The position numbers and the translations under genes were made by a program. Below are positions 1,170-15,044 of a stretch of 15,215 nucleotides of DNA, piece by piece. How positions within the stretch are numbered: the stretch's first letter is position 1; every line of letters starts with the position of its first letter. The notes under the pieces were generated by a model that ran no database searches, was not told the DNA's origin, and saw only the letters and a program-made list of their open reading frames with translations. Source of the stretch: a virus (lineage: Duplodnaviria > Heunggongvirae > Uroviricota > Caudoviricetes); IMG/VR virus record IMGVR_UViG_2778261570_000007, positions 1 to 15,215 of that record. One strand, given 5' to 3'.

Positions 1170-1380
1170 TTTTCACGGGTCCTTTCCAGAACCTGAAATA
1201 CCGGGGGTCTGGGGACGCGCAAAAACGCGCTATTTATGAAAATTTTCAGGGAAAAAGCAGATCCGTTCTTCTTCTGGCTAACCTGTTGTTTAATAGAGTT
1301 TTCTTAAAAAAAAGAAAGGATCTGGCAGCGGTGATTTTTCGCTGAAAAAAGCGTTTTGAGATCCTTTCTTCTTTTTGTGA
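1170..1380. promoter_or_regulatory. cos: Lambda-type cohesive-end site (cosQ, cosN, cosB with R3, IHF site, R2, R1)
   Basis: cacgggtcctttcc (1174-1187) matches the lambda right-end sequence ACGGGTCCTTTCC. The cosN-like element gggtctggggac lies at about 1205-1216. It is followed by cgctatttatgaaaattttc (1228-1247), nearly identical to lambda positions about 25-45. ccgttcttcttc (1263-1274) is R3-like. aaagaaaggatct (about 1310-1322) and agatcctttcttc (about 1360-1372) are inverted R2/R1-like repeats. The Nu1 start follows at 1393, as in lambda. Confidence 0.75.
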
Positions 1381-1392
1381 GGAATATGTGCC

Positions 1393-1941
1393 GTGAAGGT
1401 TAACAAAAAGAAACTGGCGGAAATTTTTGAGTGCGATGTCAGAACAATCACTGGCTGGCAAAGTCAGGGGCTGAGAGTTTTGTCGGGGGGAGGCAAAGGT
1501 ATCGAAGCCATGTTCAATACTGCAGAAGCCATTGAGTGGTATGCGCAGCGGGAAAAAGATATCGAAAACGAAAAGCTCCGCAAAGAACTGGAAGATTTGC
1601 GTGCGACTGCAGAATCAGATTTACAACCCGGCACCATTGACTATGAACGCTACCGGTTAACCAAAGCACAGGCTGACGCACAGGAGCTGAAAAATGCCCG
1701 TGAAGAAGGGCTGGTGCTGGAAACGGAATTGTTTACCTTCATTCTGCAACGTGTGGCACAGGAGATTTCGGGGATACTTGTACGTGTGCCGCTGACATTA
1801 CAGCGTAAATATCCGGATATTTCACCGTCACACCTTGATGTGGTGAAAACTGAAATCGCGAAAGCCTCCAATGTTGCAGCTAAAGCCGGTGAAAACGTGG
1901 GCAGGTGGATTGATGATTTCAGACGCACAGAAGGCAGCTAA
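1393..1941 (+). CDS. nu1: Terminase small subunit (lambda Nu1 family)
   Basis: GTG start with gagga SD upstream. The N-terminus [70 protein letters not shown] closely parallels lambda Nu1 (MEVNKKQLADIF...GGGKG...ENEKLRREVEELR). It sits immediately downstream of cosB. Confidence 0.9.
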
Positions 1942-3829
1942 TGCAGCCGGTGCGATAGCTACAGGGCTTTTATCTCTCAATATTCCGGTTCCACTGACGA
2001 CAGTTCAGTGGGCTGATAAACATTATTATCTGCCGAAAGAATCTTCATATACCCCCGGACAATGGGAAACCCTGCCGTTTCAGGTTGCCATTATGAACAG
2101 CATGGGAAATGACCGGATCCGCACCGTTAATCTGATTAAATCGGCGCGCGTTGGTTACACCAAAATGCTGTTGGGGGTGGAGGCTTATTTTATTGAGCAT
2201 AAATCCCGTAACAGTCTGCTTTTTCAGCCAACAGATTCTGCTGCAGAAGATTTCATGAAATCTCATGTTGAGCCCACGATAAGGGATGTCCCTGCATTGC
2301 TGGAGCTGGCTCCATGGTTCGGAAGAAAGCACCGCGATAATACACTCACCCTGAAGCGTTTTTCCTCCGGTGTGGGTTTCTGGTGCCTTGGCGGCGCCGC
2401 TGCTAAAAACTACCGTGAAAAATCTGTGGATGTGGTCTGCTATGACGAACTCTCCTCGTTTGAACCGGATGTGGAAAAAGAAGGTTCGCCGACGCTGCTT
2501 GGCGATAAGCGTATCGAAGGCTCGGTATGGCCTAAATCCATACGTGGCTCAACGCCAAAAATTAAAGGCACCTGCCAGATTGAGAAAGCCGCAAATGAAT
2601 CAGCGCATTTCATGCGGTTTTATGTCCCTTGCCCTCATTGCGGGGAGGCCCAGTATCTGAAGTTTGGCGATGATGCGACGCCATTTGGCCTGAAATGGGA
2701 GAAGGGTAAACCGGAAACGGTGTATTACCTGTGTGAACATAATGGCTGTGTGATCCGGCAGTCGGAACTTGACCAGACCGACGGGCGCTGGATTTGTGAC
2801 AATACCGGGATGTGGACGCGCGACGGCCTGGCATTTTACAGCGCCGGCGATGAGGAGATGCCACCGCCGCGCTCCGTCACTTTCCACATCTGGACGGCGT
2901 ACAGTCCGTTCACCACCTGGGTACAGATTGTTTATGACTGGCTGGATGCGCTGAAGGATCCGAACGGTGTTAAGACGTTTATTAACACCACGCTCGGGGA
3001 GCCCTATGAAGAGGCCGTGGCAGAAAAACTGAGCTTTGAGTTGTTGCTGGAAAAAGTCTGCCACTATGGCGCGCAGGTTCCCCTGCGGGTGGTTTACCTG
3101 ACCGCAGGGATCGACTCCCAGAAAGATCGCTATGAAATTTATGTCTGGGGCTGGGCTCCCGGCGAAGAAGCCTTTCTGATTGATAAGCAAATTATCATGG
3201 GGCGACCGGAAGACGAGGACACCCTTAAACGTGTTGATACGGTGATCCGGAAAAAATATCGTCATGCTGACGGTACTGAAATTTCCATTTCCCGTGTCTG
3301 CTGGGATACCGGTGGTATCGACCAGGACATTGTGTATCAGCGTTCCAGGAAACACGGCACTTTTTTTGTGCTTCCCATAAAAGGGGCATCGGTGTACGGC
3401 AAGCCGGTGATCACCATGCCCAAAAAGCGCAACCAGCGTGGTGTGTTTTTGTGTGAGGTGGGCTCCGATACCGTCAAGGAAATGCTGTACGCCCGTTTTG
3501 CCCTGCCGGTGGTCTCTGCCAGTGAAGCCGCCCCGTATACCTTCCGTTTTCCGGATAACCCCGACATTTTTTCGGAAGAAGAGGCGCGTCAGATCGTGGC
3601 GGAAGAGCTGGTGGAGAAGGTGGTTAATGGCAGGGTGAAACTGCTGTGGGATAAAAAAGGGCGACGCAACGAAGCCCTCGACTGCCTGGTATATGCCTAT
3701 GCTGCCCTGCGTATTTCAGTTCAGCGGTGGCAGCTGGATCTTGAAGCACTGGCCCGTGCCAGAAGAGATGAGCAGGACGACGATGAGATGAGTCTGGAAG
3801 AAATCGCGGCTGCACTGAGTGGAGGATAA
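1913..3829 (+). CDS. A: Terminase large subunit (lambda gpA family; ATPase and endonuclease)
   Basis: Long colinear similarity to lambda gpA, for example [25 protein letters not shown], a P-loop-like [54 protein letters not shown] and [20 protein letters not shown] prefer the ATG at 1913 (aggtgg SD at 1903-1908; about 29-nt overlap with Nu1, similar to lambda) over the tracked 1871 start. Confidence 0.92.
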
Positions 3830-8738: not shown

Positions 8739-9104
8739 ATGACAAAAGAGCAGATGACTAAACGTTTGCAGGAACTGGCAGTGATTCTGGGGCGTGAAGC
8801 AGATATTTCAGGTTCAAAAGCCGATCTTGAGCAGCGTCTGGCGGAATGGGAGGAGGAGGCCGCTGGATTCGATGGGGAGGAGACGGGGAAGGAAGAGGTG
8901 GGCAACGATGCATCCGGCGACGGAATGCATTCTGAGCAGGGACTCGCCCGGGTGCGTATGCTGAAAACGGCGCATATGCCAGCCTGTGATGCTGTGACGG
9001 GAAAAATGTTGATGTTTGCCCGGGCCTCCAGTGTTGTGCTGGTTAATGAAGCCGCAGTTCCTGCGTTGCTGGCAGACGGTCTGGCAGAAAAAATCCGGGA
9101 GTGA
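8739..9104 (+). CDS. FI: DNA packaging / head assembly protein (lambda gpFI family)
   Basis: ATG at 8739 with a gggagag SD, in frame with tracked ORF 8607..9104. The N-terminus MTKEQMTKRLQELAVILGREADISGSKADLEQRLAEWEEE resembles lambda FI (MTKDELIARLRSLGEQL...GTKEEL..RVAELKEE). The middle is acidic and the C-terminal domain hydrophobic, as in FI. Confidence 0.75.
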   Translation: MTKEQMTKRLQELAVILGREADISGSKADLEQRLAEWEEEAAGFDGEETGKEEVGNDASGDGMHSEQGLARVRMLKTAHMPACDAVTGKMLMFARASSVVLVNEAAVPALLADGLAEKIRE

Positions 9105-9508
9105 TGATGTTCGATAATCTGTTCGATCAGGCCATGAGTGATGCGGATGACATCATCCTGGATACGATGGGGACGGAAATCAGCATATATCCGGGCGGCA
9201 CGGAAAGAAAAATCCGTGCCGTTTTTGATGCCCCGGCAGATAACACCGGGATGAACACTGGCAGCGGCGAAATTCGTGATACTGCGCCCGTGTTATTTAC
9301 CCGGAGCGCATGGGCCGCCGGTCTGAAAAAATATGACAGGGTCATGATCCACGGCGAACCCTATCAGGTAGTCGATCCCGGCTGGGATGAGTCAGGCGCT
9401 GCGGGTCAGGGGGTGATTACCATCACCCTTGCGCGTGGAGAGCCCGGGAGAAATACACCTGCTGCACCGGAACGACCGAGTAAACGTTATGGCAGTCAGA
9501 GAGCATGA
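9104..9508 (+). CDS. FII: Head-tail connector protein (lambda gpFII family)
   Basis: MMFDNLFDQAMSDADDIILDTMGTEISI...AVFDAP...PVLFTRS...GLKKYDRVMIHGE parallels lambda FII (MADFDNLFDAAIARADETIRGYMGTSATI...GVFDDP...PSLFVRTDE...LRRGDTLTIGEE). The start overlaps the FI stop. The exact start (GTG 9101, ATG 9104 or ATG 9107) is uncertain. Confidence 0.8.
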   Translation: MMFDNLFDQAMSDADDIILDTMGTEISIYPGGTERKIRAVFDAPADNTGMNTGSGEIRDTAPVLFTRSAWAAGLKKYDRVMIHGEPYQVVDPGWDESGAAGQGVITITLARGEPGRNTPAAPERPSKRYGSQRA

Positions 9509-10211
9509 ACGAAGCAGTGCCCGGCAGCGACGGCTGGCACGAAACCTCGTTGTCGATATTGATGAAGATGAGGTGCTGAAAATTATCGCTAAACTGGGTG
9601 GGTCAAAAAGTCAGATCCGTAAAGCCTGGGGCGTGGCGCTGAAAAGAGCCGCGTCTGCACTGCGGATGAAGGCTATGGCAGAGTTTAAAAAACAGGTTGC
9701 CCCACGCAGTCAGAAAATGATCAAAAAGCGTGTTCTGCATAATTTTATCATTCGTCGTAACGGTGATGAGTTTGATGAGGCGAAGGTATGGTTCGGTCTG
9801 AACGCCATCAAAGTACGCGATCTGCGCGGACGCATCAGTGGGGGACGACGCGGCGAACGCCATCAGTTGCGCGATGAGCGGGGGCGTTTTGCACCAGCTT
9901 CCAGCCGCAGGAAGGCTCGGGAGATCAGTTTTAAACCTGCCGGGGAATCCCTGCCTGTCACCGCCTGGTCAACGGATGATGCCTTTATCAACCAGTTCGA
10001 AGCGGAAAATCGTAACGGACGTATATCAAAAAGGAAAACGATACTGATCCGACAGGCATCCGGACGACGGAGGGTGCGTGAAGCGGAAATTGATATTTAT
10101 GAAGCCATGCTGAACCGTATAGAGGATTTTGTTTTTCCGGATGCGGAAGCACTGATCCTGAAAAATTTTGAGCATGAACTGAAATTCCGGGTATTTAAGG
10201 GGCTGGAGTGA
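9489..10211 (+). CDS. Putative tail-completion protein, possibly lambda gpZ-like (basic, about 240-260 aa)
   Basis: Sits where lambda has Z (after FII, before U). Highly basic composition with Z-like segments (KRAASALRMKAMAEFKKQV...; AKVWFGLNAIKVRDLRG versus lambda Z ARIKVNRGDLPVIKLGN). The similarity is weak and from memory. The start is uncertain (tracked ATG 9429 overlaps FII by 80 nt; the in-frame ATG at 9489 has a poor SD). Confidence 0.4.
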   Translation: MAVREHERSSARQRRLARNLVVDIDEDEVLKIIAKLGGSKSQIRKAWGVALKRAASALRMKAMAEFKKQVAPRSQKMIKKRVLHNFIIRRNGDEFDEAKVWFGLNAIKVRDLRGRISGGRRGERHQLRDERGRFAPASSRRKAREISFKPAGESLPVTAWSTDDAFINQFEAENRNGRISKRKTILIRQASGRRRVREAEIDIYEAMLNRIEDFVFPDAEALILKNFEHELKFRVFKGLE

Positions 10212-10774
10212 TGGAGCCATTGATGATGGGAGCCTGGCATCAGGCGGTGATTGACAGTCTGAAACAAATTCCCTGGGTGGAAGATGCCGATGAGTACCCG
10301 GAAAAAGTGACGCAACTGGTGACGCCTGCCGTGTTTGTGGATGTGCCCGGCTGGGACAAGGCTCAGTTTGCCGACGGGCAGACGCGGGTCACGCTGAAAT
10401 GCGATCTGTTTGTGGTGACTGACCGGGCCGGGAAGACGGAGAACGTGCCAAAACCGCAGATATTTGCCCGCTGTCTGGCAATGGATTTATCTGACTGGAT
10501 TGATGGAGCCACGTTCGGGCTGGATAACGTTTACCCGGCTGTTTTTATCGATGCTGAGGTGGATACCTTCGACCGGCTGCTGGACGACTACATCGTTTTC
10601 CGTGTCTCTTTCGAACAGGACATTCCGGTCGGCGAAGATCCGTTTGCAGTTCAGGCAGGTGCGCCGTTACAGGAAGTCTGGCTGGGTAAAGTACCGGAAA
10701 CCGGTAAAAAGCATGTGCAGGATTATCGTCTTATCTGGAAAGCGGAGGGCACCGGCGATGAGTCTGGCGGATGA
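10211..10774 (+). CDS. Putative tail terminator / tail-completion protein, possibly lambda gpU-like, with a C-terminal extension
   Basis: Lies after the Z-like gene, where lambda has U. AVIDSLKQ...PAVFVDVPG...TRVTLKCDLFVV loosely parallels lambda U (AAVLDALEK...PAVAVYLTG...ELHIEVFL). The start overlaps the upstream stop (GTG 10208 / ATG 10211). At 187 aa it is longer than lambda U (131 aa). Confidence 0.45.
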   Translation: MEPLMMGAWHQAVIDSLKQIPWVEDADEYPEKVTQLVTPAVFVDVPGWDKAQFADGQTRVTLKCDLFVVTDRAGKTENVPKPQIFARCLAMDLSDWIDGATFGLDNVYPAVFIDAEVDTFDRLLDDYIVFRVSFEQDIPVGEDPFAVQAGAPLQEVWLGKVPETGKKHVQDYRLIWKAEGTGDESGG

Positions 10775-11381
10775 AGTGGCTGAGTTACGCCGCAGGGTGG
10801 CGGACATGGTCCGTCGCGGCGTGGTGGAAGTGGTGATCCCGGGTAGCCCGGTGATGGTCCGGGTGGATATCGGAGATGTGCTTTCGCCGCCGTTGCCCTG
10901 GATTCAGGTGCAGTCCGGGCGTTACATGCAGGTCAGTAATTACCCGGCACCAGGAGATGCGGTCACGGTGATATCGGAGGCAGGTGATCTGCGTAATGGT
11001 CGGGTGTATCCGGGGGCCAACATTGACGCGATTCCGGTACCGGCGGGCAGTGAACACGAGCATGTTATTTTGTTTGATACCGGAACGGAGATCCGTTACG
11101 ACCGCAAGGCTAATGCCCTGTCCATCACGCTGGCTGAAGGCGGCAGCTATAAAATCACCGGCAGGGGAATGCTTGACGGTCCGGTGGAAATCACGGATAC
11201 CCTGACTGTGCAGGGAAAAACGAAGATTAATGCCGATACGCAGGTTCTGGGCAATATCGGTGCCTCACAGGAGATCACCGACAAAACCGGTAGCATGAGT
11301 AAAATTCGCGAAATTTATAATACTCATGATCACCCTGGCGACAGCGGGGGAACCACCCGTAAACCTAACCAGGAAATGTGA
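10758..11381 (+). CDS. V: Baseplate assembly / spike protein (P2 gpV family)
   Basis: ATG at 10758 with a ggaggg SD, overlapping the upstream stop by 17 nt. The N-terminus MSLADEVAELRRRVADMVRRGVV parallels P2 V (NIQELARALRNMIRTGII). The C-terminal NTHDHPGDSGGTT matches the P2 V motif HTHKHPGDSGGTT. The tracked ORF 10464..11381 contains this frame. Confidence 0.85.
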   Translation: MSLADEVAELRRRVADMVRRGVVEVVIPGSPVMVRVDIGDVLSPPLPWIQVQSGRYMQVSNYPAPGDAVTVISEAGDLRNGRVYPGANIDAIPVPAGSEHEHVILFDTGTEIRYDRKANALSITLAEGGSYKITGRGMLDGPVEITDTLTVQGKTKINADTQVLGNIGASQEITDKTGSMSKIREIYNTHDHPGDSGGTTRKPNQEM

Positions 11382-11402
11382 ACGCCGCACCGGCGTTTTT
11401 TT
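11382..11402 (+). terminator. Terminator-like hairpin with T-run between V and W (candidate attenuator)
   Basis: acgccg (11382-11387), loop cac, cggcgt (11391-11396), followed by a 7-T run (11396-11402). The next gene starts at 11415 without an obvious SD. Confidence 0.4.
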
Positions 11403-11414
11403 CGGAAAAATTTC

Positions 11415-11771
11415 ATGATTGGTATTGATTCCGCCACTGGCAGATATCTGCACGGTAACGAACATCTGCGTCAGTCCGTCACCGATATTTTATCAACACC
11501 GGTCGGCAGCCGGGTACTTCTCAGGGAATACGGCAGCAGGTTGTTCAGTCTGCTTGATAACCCGCAGGATGATTTTACGCGGGTGAGGATTGTCCGTGAA
11601 ACGGCAACCGCCCTTGAACGCTGGGAGCCCCGCCTGACCCTCCGGCGGGTGGAGGTGACGTGGACAGGAGAAGGAAGCGCCTGGCTGACGCTTGTCGGGG
11701 TGAACAACGAAACACAGGAAACGATTCGACTCGAGGAGATAAAAATTGGCAGCATCTCAGGCCATTATTGA
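11415..11771 (+). CDS. W: Baseplate wedge protein (P2 gpW / T4 gp25-like family)
   Basis: 118 aa. SVTDILSTPVGSRVLLREYGSRLFSLLDNPQ...ALERWEPRLTL parallels P2 W (SIGDILRTPVGSRVMRRDYGSLLASMIDQPQ...KWEPRVTL). Confidence 0.85.
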   Translation: MIGIDSATGRYLHGNEHLRQSVTDILSTPVGSRVLLREYGSRLFSLLDNPQDDFTRVRIVRETATALERWEPRLTLRRVEVTWTGEGSAWLTLVGVNNETQETIRLEEIKIGSISGHY

Positions 11772-12660
11772 TCTGTCCGCGATACCTGTACCGGATGCGG
11801 TGGAGGTGCCGGACACCGCTGTACTGGTCACTCAGATAGTGGCGAAATATCAGGAACTGGACACGTTGTTTTCGGCCCTGGTGGAATCTGATCCCGCGTA
11901 TAAATGGGCAGAGGCGCTGGCTTTTCGGGTGGCGCTGATGCGCCAGCAGATAAATGATGCTGTCCGTGCTGTACTGCTTGCCAGTGCCGGTGGGAGCGAT
12001 CTGGATCAGGTTGGCGCGAATTATCAGGTTCAGCGGCTGGTCATTACCCCGGCAGACGACAGCACCATTCCGCCCACGCCGGCGGTGTATGAACATGATG
12101 ACGCTTTTCGCGAACGTATCCAGTTGTCGTGGGCACGGCTCAGCACCGCCGGCGCGAAAAATGCGTATCACTATTTTGCACAAAGTGCTGATCCTGATGT
12201 GCTGGATGTGAAGGCTTACGGGCCGGAAACGCATTCGCAGGAAGGTCGGGTTTTTCTTTATGTGTTATCCCGCTCCGGAAATGGCACTGCACCACAACCC
12301 CTGCTGGATAAGGTGGCAGCATCAGTCAGTGATGATGAAACCCGTCCCCTGACGGATTTTGTCAGTGTCCGGACGGCAGAAATTATTCCCTACGATGTGG
12401 TGGCGGATATTCATATTCCCTACGGACTGGATGGTGAACTGGTTATGTCAAATGCCCGCAAGGCGCTGCAGTCATACACTGACAGCGTCCACCGGATTGG
12501 CTCGGTGGCATCCCGTTCCGGCATGGATGGTGCCCTTCACCAGACCGGGGTGATTACGGTGAATCTGACCTCTCCGGGCAGTGATATCGTTCCTGCGATG
12601 GGGCAGGCACCGTGGTGCCGTAAGGTAACGCTGAATAAGGTGGAGACAACTGATGAATGA
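11746..12660 (+). CDS. J: Baseplate assembly protein (P2 gpJ family)
   Basis: TTG start at 11746 preceded by a gaggag SD (11733-11738). IIDLSAIPVPDAV, LDQVGANYQVQRLVITPADDSTIPPTPAV and a C-terminal ...TTDE parallel P2 J (IIDLNQLPAPDVV, LDVIGANYNTTRLTITPADDSTIPPTPAV, ...GGSDE). Confidence 0.88.
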   Translation: MAASQAIIDLSAIPVPDAVEVPDTAVLVTQIVAKYQELDTLFSALVESDPAYKWAEALAFRVALMRQQINDAVRAVLLASAGGSDLDQVGANYQVQRLVITPADDSTIPPTPAVYEHDDAFRERIQLSWARLSTAGAKNAYHYFAQSADPDVLDVKAYGPETHSQEGRVFLYVLSRSGNGTAPQPLLDKVAASVSDDETRPLTDFVSVRTAEIIPYDVVADIHIPYGLDGELVMSNARKALQSYTDSVHRIGSVASRSGMDGALHQTGVITVNLTSPGSDIVPAMGQAPWCRKVTLNKVETTDE

Positions 12661-13243
12661 CGATATCAGGAGCATACTGCCGGTCAGTGCCAGCCGGGCA
12701 GAGCGGGTGGTGGACTGTGTCTCCGGAGATATGCTGTCAGACATAGCGGTCTGCCTGATCCGCTATGTGAAAAATCCCGATTTATGCCCTGCTGAATTGC
12801 TGCCATGGCTGGCCTGGGAAATGGCGGTGGATACCTGGAATGAACACTGGACGGAGACGGAAAAAAGGTCTGCGATAAAACGTGCTGCTTACATCCACCG
12901 ACACAGAGGGACTAAAGCGGCGCTGATGGCATCGCTGGCTGACAGTCCCTTCCGGTCGCAGATTGTTGAGTGGTATGAGCAGACCCCGCCCGGGGAGCCG
13001 TATACCTTTCGTCTGAACGTGGAACAGAAGGATTTACCGGTGCTGATGAATGATCATCAGGATCTTAAGCATGCGGTGCTCCGTGCCAAAAATCTGCGCA
13101 GCTGGTTCAGTATTCACGTTTACGGGAACAGCACAGGGCGTGGATTTGGTTACGGCTATGTGATGGCGACAGAAAAAATCAGAAGTACTGGTGTGACAAC
13201 AAAGACAGTGCCCACAGGCGGGCAGAGTGAGGCAGGTGTATGA
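12653..13243 (+). CDS. I: Baseplate / tail protein (P2 gpI family)
   Basis: NPDLCPAELLPWLAWEMAVDTWNEHWTETEKRSAIKRAAYIHRHRGTKAAL...EWYEQTPPGEPYTFRL parallels P2 I (NPDTCPANLLPWLAWAFSVDRWDEKWPEATKRAVIRDAYFIHCHKGTIGAV...EWWENSDPPGTFRL). Overlaps J by 8 nt. Confidence 0.85.
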   Translation: MNDDIRSILPVSASRAERVVDCVSGDMLSDIAVCLIRYVKNPDLCPAELLPWLAWEMAVDTWNEHWTETEKRSAIKRAAYIHRHRGTKAALMASLADSPFRSQIVEWYEQTPPGEPYTFRLNVEQKDLPVLMNDHQDLKHAVLRAKNLRSWFSIHVYGNSTGRGFGYGYVMATEKIRSTGVTTKTVPTGGQSEAGV

Positions 13244-14499
13244 ATGGACTGATTCTGACAACGTCCGGCGCTGCAGAAATTGAAGCAGCATATCAGAACG
13301 GGCAAACCGTGACCGTCCGGCATGTTCTGCTTGGTGACGGGGGCGGGCGGGCATTGCCATCCACGCCGGATGAAATGGCAGCAATGACATCGTTGTACGG
13401 CGAATTCGGGCAGGAACCCTTTTCCGACGGTGCGATGGAGGAGGGCTTCATCAGCGGGGATATTGTGATTGACTGTAAATCATACCCCGGTAAAACCCTT
13501 CGTGAACTGGGGATGATCAGCGACAGAGGTACGCTTATCGCGTACGGACGTTATCCCGACACCTTTTTACCAGACCAGACGGACTCCGTTATCAAGGAAG
13601 TTATTCTGACGCTGGTTCTTGGGCTGACGCACGCACAAAACGTGGTGCTGGAAGTTGATCCGGACAGGGCCATTATTACTCAGGAAATCGGAGACAGACG
13701 CTATCTGCAACGAAAAAAGAATCTTTCGGATGTGGAAGACAAGGATGAGGCTGTTGAAAACCTCGGATTAAAACCCACGGTGGACAAGGCAAAAAATGCC
13801 GTTCAGCGTGATGGTGACACCATGACCGGGGAGCTGAAAATCCGTGGTGTTAATGCGCTGAGGATTTTCAACGAAGCCTTTGGCCTGATTTTTCGTCGTT
13901 CGGAAGAGTGCCTGCACCTTATTCCAACACAGGAAAACCAGGGTGAAAATGGCGATATTGGTCCACTTCGCCCGTTCACTATTAATCTGCGGACGGGTGA
14001 AATATCCATGTCGCATAAAGTGTCTGTTGGTGGCGGTTCTCAGGTGAATGGTGCGCTGGGTATCGGCGTTCAGAATGCCCTGGGCGGAAACTCAATTGCT
14101 TTCGGGGATAACGATACCGGCCTGAAACAGAATGGTGATGGCCTGCTGGATGTTTATGCCAATGGTCAGCACGTATTCCGTTTTCAGAATGGCGCGTTAC
14201 AAAGTAACCGGGCGGTGAACGTTACTGGGCGGGTAACACCGTCAGACTACGGAAACTTTGATGCCCGTTACCAGACCAAAACAGGCGGCGTGCAGGATGT
14301 GCGTTATGGTTCCGAAATGTATTACAACCCGGGAGGTAACGAGATAACCTGGACGTTTCGCTCACCTTCAGGCCACGGATTATCCGGTATTTATGTGCAG
14401 GATACCGGAAGAAGTTCGGCAGATAACATTGGTGGTGTGTATTACAGACCGCTTCAGAAACTGATTAACGGCACCTGGTATAACGTGGCGAGTGTTTAA
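13240..14499 (+). CDS. H: Tail fibre protein (P2 gpH family), short form
   Basis: The N-terminus (TTSGAAEIEAA...VTVRHVLLGDGGG) and the C-terminal region (KAKNAVQRDGDTMTGEL; NALGGNSIAFGDNDTGLKQNGDGLLDVYANGQHVFRFQNG; GNFDARY; YRPLQKLINGTWYNVASV) parallel P2 H (NAVQKNGDTLSGGL; NALGGSSIVLGDNDTGFKQNGDGILDVYANSQRVFRFQNG; FRPIQKYINGTWYNVAQV). At 419 aa it is much shorter than P2 H as I recall it. Confidence 0.85.
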   Translation: MNGLILTTSGAAEIEAAYQNGQTVTVRHVLLGDGGGRALPSTPDEMAAMTSLYGEFGQEPFSDGAMEEGFISGDIVIDCKSYPGKTLRELGMISDRGTLIAYGRYPDTFLPDQTDSVIKEVILTLVLGLTHAQNVVLEVDPDRAIITQEIGDRRYLQRKKNLSDVEDKDEAVENLGLKPTVDKAKNAVQRDGDTMTGELKIRGVNALRIFNEAFGLIFRRSEECLHLIPTQENQGENGDIGPLRPFTINLRTGEISMSHKVSVGGGSQVNGALGIGVQNALGGNSIAFGDNDTGLKQNGDGLLDVYANGQHVFRFQNGALQSNRAVNVTGRVTPSDYGNFDARYQTKTGGVQDVRYGSEMYYNPGGNEITWTFRSPSGHGLSGIYVQDTGRSSADNIGGVYYRPLQKLINGTWYNVASV

Positions 14500-14501
14500 C
14501 A

Positions 14502-15044
14502 ATGTTGCATTTAAAAAATATTACTGCAGGCAATCCGAAAACCGCAGAACAATATCAGATGACAAAACAACATGGTATCACCTGGCTTTTTTCGGAAGAT
14601 GACAAAAACTGGTATGAAGAACAGAAGAACTTTGCCAGTGACACCATAAAAATGGTTTACACCGGAGACGGGCGCGTGGTGTGGGTCGGTAAGGATGTGA
14701 CAGGCATTGAACCCCGTAACGCCAGTGTTATTGAAGTTCCTGATATTACCGCTAATCGCCGTATTACCGTGCCTGGTTACTGGTTTTACCGCAACGATAA
14801 ATTTGTCTTCGACTACAAACTAAAAGCGGAAGATGAGCGCGATGCTCTGTTAAAACAGGTCAGCATCATGACCAGCGAATGGGAAAAAGACCTGCTGCTG
14901 GGATTAATCAGTGACGAAGACAGGGGGAAGCTGAAAGCGTACCGCATTTACGCGAAATCGCTGCAGGCGATGGATTTCAGCGCTATTACGGATAAGCCCA
15001 CTTACAACAATATTAGCTGGCCTGAACAGCCACAAAATACCTGA
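14502..15044 (+). CDS. G: Tail fibre assembly chaperone (P2 gpG / Tfa family)
   Basis: MLHLKNITAGNPKTAEQYQMTK...WLFSEDDKNWYEEQKNFASDTIKMVY...VIEVPDITANRR parallels P2 G ([22 protein letters not shown]...[26 protein letters not shown]...VVEVPDITSNRR). Starts 3 nt after the H stop. Confidence 0.88.
   Translation: MLHLKNITAGNPKTAEQYQMTKQHGITWLFSEDDKNWYEEQKNFASDTIKMVYTGDGRVVWVGKDVTGIEPRNASVIEVPDITANRRITVPGYWFYRNDKFVFDYKLKAEDERDALLKQVSIMTSEWEKDLLLGLISDEDRGKLKAYRIYAKSLQAMDFSAITDKPTYNNISWPEQPQNT

Follow-up and report, generated by a model that had tools for sequence, protein, structure and literature searches.

Background

The functional roles of the cos subsites considered here, and the mechanism proposed for them, follow the lambda paradigm (PMC4669245; PMC9026076). 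In lambda, I2 is needed for efficient packaging termination, and in lambda-like phages both nicks are flanked by highly conserved CG dinucleotides; this flanking CG and the left half of cosN have been concluded to be under selection (PMC4669245). The R3 site of lambda occupies bp 50-65, at a spacing from cosN that is critical, and is contacted by TerS at bp 55-63, of which bp 56, 58 and 59 are functionally critical and bp 56 is contacted by TerS residue E24 (PMC9026076). In the cos of PICIs, rpp follows a lone R3-like site, at approximately bp 102, and Nu1 and gpA genes are lacking in these islands (PMC9026076).

The DNA analysed here, referred to as the window, is a stretch of 15,215 nucleotides from an IMG/VR virus record (IMGVR_UViG_2778261570_000007). 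Its region 1177-1392 is a genuine and complete lambda-family cos within an Escherichia coli prophage, and the layout of this cos is ordinary. It is best read as the cos packaging site of a lambdoid E. coli prophage, most likely working like lambda cos (estimated probability of approximately 0.85). The only unusual feature is a non-lambda, hypervariable cohesive-end core; for the rest, the site is a modest variant of a textbook cos. Positions are given either as window coordinates or as cos numbering (bp), in which bp 1 of the mature genome corresponds with window position 1206.

Architecture of the cos site

All elements of the intact lambda-type cos that an earlier note on this DNA had placed at 1170-1395 were found there, beside lambda-family terminase genes (Table 1). 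The full set of subsites occurred in lambda order and with near-lambda spacing (cosQ-cosN-I2-R3-I1-R2-R1; 1177-1392). Aligned with lambda, phi80 and 21, as the earlier note had proposed, and with Gifsy-1, the window was collinear with the left ends of these genomes up to the terS start, bp 1 being set at 1206 and no gaps larger than 1-2 nt being needed. Indeed, R3 (bp 54-68) and I1 (bp 74-86) coincided exactly with their counterparts in lambda and 21, R3 having the same position as described for lambda (PMC9026076), and R2, R1 and the terS start were found within 1-3 nt of theirs. The terS start itself was located at bp 188 in the window, at bp 191 in lambda and at bp 189 in phage 21.

Table 1. 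Location of the cos subsites and terminase genes in the window, with the TerS recognition helix of this and related phages
Feature	Window position	Strand	Description
cosQ	1177..1183	+	GGGTCCT; packaging-termination subsite at -29..-23 relative to the predicted left nick; identical to cosQ of lambda and to that annotated in 21
cosN	1204..1219	.	bp -2 to 14; predicted 12-nt cohesive end GGTCTGGGGACG (1206-1217) plus 2 bp on each side
I2	1228..1250	+	CGCTATTTATGAAAATTTTCAGG; bp 23-45; 22/23 identical to lambda, 19/23 to 21 and Gifsy-1
R3	1255..1273	+	bp 50-68; critical TerS site; core AGATCCGTTCTTCTT at 1259-1273; 17/19 identical to Gifsy-1, 15/19 to lambda, 12/19 to 21
I1	1279..1291	-	AAACAACAGGTTA; bp 74-86, between R3 and R2; IHF-consensus-like
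R2	1309..1323	-	AGATCCTTTCTTTTT; bp 104-118; TerS site in the opposite orientation to R3 and R1; nearer than lambda R2 by 1 nt
R1	1359..1373	+	AGATCCTTTCTTCTT; bp 154-168; TerS site; 2 nt nearer than lambda R1
terS	1393..1941	+	Nu1 family, 182 aa, GTG start at bp 188; Pfam PF07471 (Phage_Nu1), E 1.3e-84
terL	1871..3829	+	gpA family, ATPase and endonuclease; Pfam PF05876 and PF20454
TerS recognition helix			TerS residues 17-24; window RTITGWQS; lambda RTIQNWQE; 21 RTIERWQS; Gifsy-1 RTVTAWQS

The cosQ-like element described before was borne out. Its motif was present as a single copy in the window, which is non-significant for the 7-mer alone (one copy or more in 145 of 200 shuffles), and it was part of a block (1175-1187; ACGGGTCCTTTCC) that is identical to lambda, 14 of 15 positions agreeing after a 1-nt shift. 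The offset of cosQ is -29 to -23, versus -30 to -24 in lambda and 21, which brings it closer to cosN by 1 nt. The cosQ motif was kept in all 74 related contexts examined, for part of which the presence of cosQ was itself a selection criterion. Similarly, positions 1228-1247 (CGCTATTTATGAAAATTTTC) within I2 were identical to lambda bp 23-42 (20/20). Among the related loci, cosN types and cosB types recombine at I2, which is their common junction.

Downstream of I2, a complex cosB was present, consisting of R3, I1, inverted R2 and R1, with R orientations +, - and +. The earlier note had already recognised three R-element-like repeats, one R3-like and an R2/R1 pair. Indeed, the R pattern (AGATCCKTTCTTYTT, with at most two mismatches) gave three matches in the 15.2-kb window, namely at 1259-1273 (+), 1309-1323 (-) and 1359-1373 (+), against a chance expectation of 0.06, and three matches were reached in none of 200 shuffles. 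A search for direct and inverted repeats recovered the same pairings of R1, R2 and R3. The principal IHF site had been missed, as the sequence previously proposed for it (TATTTATGAAAATTTTC) is the I2 segment; the principal site is I1 (1279-1291), which has one mismatch to the IHF consensus (WATCAANNNNTTR) and the same coordinates as I1 annotated in phage 21 (bp 74-86). The IHF consensus was not enriched across the window (seven occurrences versus 10.7 expected), so that it is the position of I1 that supports its assignment.

Genomic setting

The 351 bases around cos were present in 86 of 5,426 genomes, with 100% identity in four complete chromosomes of E. coli; strains E41, E9 and PSS-15 are carriers of the identical cos. 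In E. coli E41, the identical sequence was found in a prophage of approximately 45.4 kb, bordered by a tRNA-Ser gene and an integrase gene, in agreement with the previous proposal that the window lies inside an integrated or circularised genome and not at a genome end. To the left of cos, this prophage contained the lysis side, with holin, endolysin and small ORFs. To the right, genes for terS, terL, W, portal, protease/scaffold, D, E, FI and FII were found, and further to the right P2-type baseplate, fibre, sheath and tube genes, the head and tail genes being intact. The E41 copy also contained an IS5 insertion and some frameshifted early genes. The site thus lies in a prophage, its subsites are present and in register, and its terminase genes are intact. 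The position of cos tells annotators where the ends of the mature genome should be.

In the window (9100-15044), as well as in locus L006 (28390-40351), lambda/21-type head genes (Nu1, A, W, B, C, D, E, FI and FII) were joined directly to a P2-type contractile-tail module, arranged as baseplate V/W/J/I, fibre and fibre assembly, followed by sheath, tube and gpD-like late control. Compared with phage phiP27, the fibre genes were 93% identical. A GenBank record that shares the cosN type of the window (type C, see below) carries the name vB_EcoM.

The slot between the lysis genes and cos (480-1170) contained small ORFs without Pfam match, for example a 115-aa ORF at 593-940. In prophage SerU-LTIIb, the cos region of which was 94.8% identical, the same slot (L001, 3721-4870) contained the LT-IIb enterotoxin genes eltIIbA and eltIIbB. 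The slot just upstream of cos is a variable cargo (moron) site.

Matches to this cos among the GenBank phages were limited to SerU-LTIIb, a partial prophage, to Gifsy-1, in cosB only, and to vB_EcoM-705R4, in cosN only. IdasGreatGrand, PhiR5_1 and PhiR12_4 were considered as carriers of it and rejected, as they contained a lambda cosN with other cosB classes instead. A full-text literature search for the 12-mer and its complement retrieved unrelated primer matches only, and no open-access discussion of this cos was found in the LT-II prophage literature.

The cohesive end and the position of the nicks

The predicted cohesive end of the window (GGTCTGGGGACG) was identical to that of lambda (GGGCGGCGACCT) at six of 12 positions. 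The left half of cosN reads GGTCTG, versus GGGCGG in lambda; the left flank is GG (AG in relatives) and the right flank CG is kept. With GG at the left nick, the window departs from the strong conservation of CG reported for lambda-like phages (PMC4669245). The cosN of the window is conserved in position and not in sequence, and the earlier mention of a conserved cosN applies to the former only.

The nicks are predicted between 1205 and 1206 on the top strand and between 1217 and 1218 on the bottom strand. In this register (1206-1217), the distances to I2, R3 and I1 were exactly those of lambda and 21. Also, two natural hybrids join in the same register, namely L019, in which a type C left arm is followed by GGGCGGCGACCT, and L048, in which a CCACG left arm is followed by GGTCTGGGGACG. 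At approximately 3001-3040 of L048, an apparent 1-nt deletion occurred in an A-run at terS codons 5-7, representing either a frameshift or a sequencing error, so that this hybrid loses weight as functional evidence for the register of cosN, its value as positional evidence being unaffected. At the level of the family, bp 4 and bp 9 were complementary in 14 of the 15 type C alleles listed (C.G in ten and A.T in four), and one type C allele contained a perfect palindrome (GTACGCGTAC). According to both this covariation and this palindrome, the twofold axis falls at the bp 6/bp 7 junction, corresponding with window 1211/1212. The same axis was the best one in the window, yet a weak one (4/8 symmetric pairs); the symmetry of this single sequence being too weak to fix the register alone, family-level evidence was used. 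The location of about 1205-1216 that had been expected for the 12-nt ends is probably one base off, the best register being 1206-1217.

The type C cosN family and its variable core

Sequences of IMG/VR, metagenomes and GenBank together yielded 40 distinct type C contexts. Conserved among them were the left arm (TGAAACACCG[G/A]G), the spacer and bp 1-2; bp 10-12 and part of the right flank were invariant by construction of the search and carry no weight. In bp 3-9, 16 different sequences occurred among the 40 contexts, with a mean entropy of 1.25 bits versus 0.44 bits for the left arm. Near-identical type C left arms bore unrelated cores. This is the case for the left arm of the window itself, which occurred with GGTCTGGGGACG and with GGTAGCCATACG, and a two-base variant of which carried GGACGGCAGACG. 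All 34 non-type-C contexts started with GGGCGG and varied at bp 7-12 only. The latter contexts hence follow the pattern described for lambda-like phages (PMC4669245), whereas type C breaks both rules, that of the left half and that of the flanking CG.

The bp 13-22 spacer (1218-1227) was CGCAAAAACG in all type C sites, versus a same-strand T-run in lambda, 21 and phi80 (CGCGGGTTTT, CGCGGTTTTT). It resembles a small inversion, which flips the orientation of the A-tract beside the right nick.

Matches to the type C pattern in species-representative genomes were limited to Escherichia whittamii and two MAG contigs. In the IMG/VR and metagenome collection, no type C cosN or right flank was found at a contig end, all 59 matches being internal. 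Of the GenBank phage records, only KU052038 (partial prophage) and ON470624 (27 kb, cos internal) contained a type C cosN.

PICI cos sites with a type C cosN (GGGCGGCAGACG or GGTACGTGTACG, flanked as in the window) were observed as well (L113, 9492-10030 (+); also L105, L122 (-)). Downstream of the type C cosN, at approximately bp 102, these three loci encoded a 146-aa RppC homologue (PDB 6hlk, E 4.8e-34), and an additional type C cos, oppositely oriented, was present in both L113 and L122. The occurrence of type C cosN flanks in PICI satellites argues that the site is cut in vivo.

A tentative explanation of the variable core is that the TerL of the type C clade may read only the nick-proximal bases (G/GG... 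and ...ACG/CG, the slash marking the nick), the central 7 bp being unconstrained or diversifying. If true, such a relaxed reading would explain the occurrence of at least 16 mutually non-complementary ends among near-identical E. coli prophage and PICI cos sites, and it would be at odds with the selection on the left half of cosN proposed for lambda-like phages. In addition, the overhang is single-stranded in virions, and a mutational bias acting on it may be an added source of variation. Type C, with a sticky-end core that varies, its left half included, represents a natural mutant series for what lambda-family TerL reads at cosN. Moreover, type C is found in PICIs and, in related prophages, beside LT-II enterotoxin genes, so that its packaging rules bear on the mobilisation of virulence genes.

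Terminase genes and packaging specificity

Besides terS and terL, Pfam searches retrieved gpW and a lambda-family portal downstream. The RefSeq start of the homologous terL is the equivalent of window position 1913. The terS start codon is GTG in the family of the window, versus ATG in lambda and 21. The terS gene is chimeric, codons 1 to approximately 45 (winged-HTH) being Gifsy-1-like and the part from approximately codon 46 onwards being nearly that of phage 21 gp1; identity to phage 21 at the DNA level begins at window position 1528, inside terS.

The R3 site was identical to lambda at bp 57-65 and differed at bp 54-56, which read AGA versus GTT in lambda and GTG in phage 21. The lambda specificity signature was absent, bp 56 being A instead of T and TerS residue 24 being S instead of E. 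Similarly, the signature of phage 21 was not found, as the R core is AGATCC and not (C/G)(A/G)TGTCGG, and helix positions 20-21 are TG and not ER. The signature of the Gifsy-1 class was present, consisting of AGATCC(G/T)TTC in all three R sites together with the helix RT(I/V)T(G/A/S)WQS. Without exception, the TerS helix covaried with the R3 core in 84 related loci of IMG/VR (AGATCC with RTIT[G/A/S]WQS, TGTCGG with RTIERWQS, and lambda TTTCC with RTIQNWQE), which indicates cognate recognition. The R repeats and TerS helix of the window are thus of predicted Gifsy-1-type specificity, and not of the lambda or 21 type. Given this R core and helix, the terminase of lambda itself is not expected to initiate here, and neither the TerS of lambda nor that of 21 would be expected as a partner for this cosB. 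The compatibility with a lambda-type terminase that had been proposed before stands as far as the prophage's own lambda-family enzyme is concerned, but does not extend to lambda specificity (R3 bp 54-56 AGA, helix RTITGWQS).

Further cosB/TerS classes were observed in other lambdoid phages of E. coli, namely PhiR5_1 (L099, 1140-1400), PhiR12_4 (L100, 1180-1420) and vB_EcoM-705R4 (L102, 1500-1620), among which a different TerS N-terminus (MATQ/MASQAEVA...) occurred behind the same cosQ-cosN-I2 framework. This indicates that many packaging specificities share that framework.

The TerL of the window was approximately 83% identical to phage 21 gp2 and 65% identical to lambda gpA. Among the related loci, TerL identity to the window sorted by cosN type, amounting to at least 98.3% for type C (with one locus at 94.7%), approximately 96% for type B, and at most 92.5%, mostly approximately 83%, for lambda-type cosN. 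The cosB/TerS-DBD module, located between cosN and terL, was mixed within the type C clade. The association of cosN and TerL is consistent with co-adaptation; physical linkage could also account for it. The cosB/TerS DNA-binding modules swap independently, while TerL clades track the cosN type. The site is a three-part mosaic, composed of a type C cosN with its own TerL clade, a Gifsy-1-type cosB with the matching TerS DBD, and a 21-type TerS C-terminal half. This mosaic, in which cosN goes with TerL, cosB with the TerS DBD and the TerS C-terminus with TerL, illustrates how specificity modules reassort at the conserved I2 and mid-terS junctions.

Alternative readings of the site

The same cos might be nicked in another register, giving either a cohesive end GGGGTCTGGGGA (1204-1215) with CG on both sides as in lambda, or one at 1205-1216. 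The window can be read as CCG/GGGGTCTGGGGA/CG and its relatives as CCG/AGGG...A/CG, which fits the CG-flank rule (PMC4669245). However, register 1204-1215 would add 2 bp to the distance between cosN and R3, a spacing that is critical in lambda (PMC9026076) and otherwise identical here. It implies an axis between 1209 and 1210 with 2/8 symmetric pairs, while palindrome GTACGCGTAC and the bp 4/bp 9 covariation centre between 1211 and 1212, and in hybrid L048 the CG dinucleotides are separated by 10 nt only. Register 1204-1215 is hence less consistent with the spacing, the hybrids, the allele symmetry and the window axis than register 1206-1217, and a nick register other than the latter is considered unlikely.

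A 78-aa ORF (1109-1345), which spans cosQ to R2, is open in the window, is listed in RefSeq as 'hypothetical protein' and in KU052038 as 'NU1-like protein', and in most relatives its frame stays open beyond an internal Met, so that the conservation of the region could be ascribed to coding constraint. The coding reading was rejected, since this ORF had no Pfam match, its N-terminal part and start codon were not conserved, and in-frame stops occurred in two relatives (L114, with a TAG inside cosN, and L014). Moreover, the positions of the conserved blocks are exactly those of the cos subsites of lambda, and the latter are non-coding DNA. A protein-coding origin of the conservation is hence very improbable, and ORF 1109-1345 is probably a spurious gene call. 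The site could also be a fossil, intact-looking and unused, in a cryptic prophage that no longer makes virions. No isolated phage with mapped ends was found to carry it among the GenBank phage records, the E41 prophage has its IS5 insertion and frameshifted early genes, and the terS gene of the relative L048 is apparently frameshifted. However, full-length ORFs are present for terS, terL, W and portal and for the head and tail genes downstream of these, PICIs keep the same cosN type, and several metagenome-derived contigs of 42-44 kb carry the site. In addition, the perfect covariation of the R core and the TerS helix, together with the conservation of cosQ, I2 and the nick-proximal bases across dozens of diverged contexts, indicates ongoing selection. 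A fossil cos is therefore improbable, and the reading as a cos packaging site that works like that of lambda is preferred.

Proposed mechanism

As a working cos of the lambda kind, the site would act after induction and concatemer formation. Nu1-family TerS dimers would occupy R3 and the inverted R2, the DNA between them being bent by IHF at I1, with R1 as a putative accessory TerS site, and TerS docking would anchor the gpA-family TerL on cosN. TerL would then introduce its two nicks 12 bp apart, at the positions predicted above (1205/1206 on the top strand and 1217/1218 on the bottom strand), producing 5' cohesive ends of sequence GGTCTGGGGACG. The predicted 5' 12-nt overhangs are GGTCTGGGGACG / CGTCCCCAGACC, with ends at 1206 and 1217. 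Upon separation of the ends, the DNA would be translocated rightward, the terS side first, and packaging would stop at the next cos via cosQ, cosN and I2. Binding, bending, nick positions and overhang polarity are all inferred by homology.

Comparison with known systems

The site shares with lambda the order, orientation and spacing of its subsites, cosQ (7/7), I2 (22/23) and a terminase of the Nu1/gpA family. It differs from lambda in the cohesive end, which is GGGCGGCGACCT in lambda, and in bp 13-22, which are CGCGGGTTTT in lambda versus CGCAAAAACG in the window. With Gifsy-1, it has in common the AGATCC core in R3, R2 and R1, the R3-I1-R2-R1 layout and a related TerS helix. Gifsy-1 differs from it by a lambda-like cosN (GGGCGGCAGCGT) and left arm, and by a TerS C-terminal part that is truncated or different; also, its cosB DNA is only 74.8% identical to that of the window. 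Phage 21 has a near-identical TerS from approximately codon 46, head genes with 77% DNA identity and the same I1 coordinates, but its R core is TGTCGG, its helix is RTIERWQS and its cosN is that of lambda. Some E. coli PICIs carry a type C cosQ-cosN-I2 segment like that of the window; the window does not have a PICI-type cos, as it contains complete terS and terL genes besides I1 and three R sites. Finally, N15 has a lambda-like cosQ/cosN/I2 framework and terminase family (PMC4669245), but with R3 and a remote rR2 only and without IHF site, whereas the window has a complex tripartite cosB.
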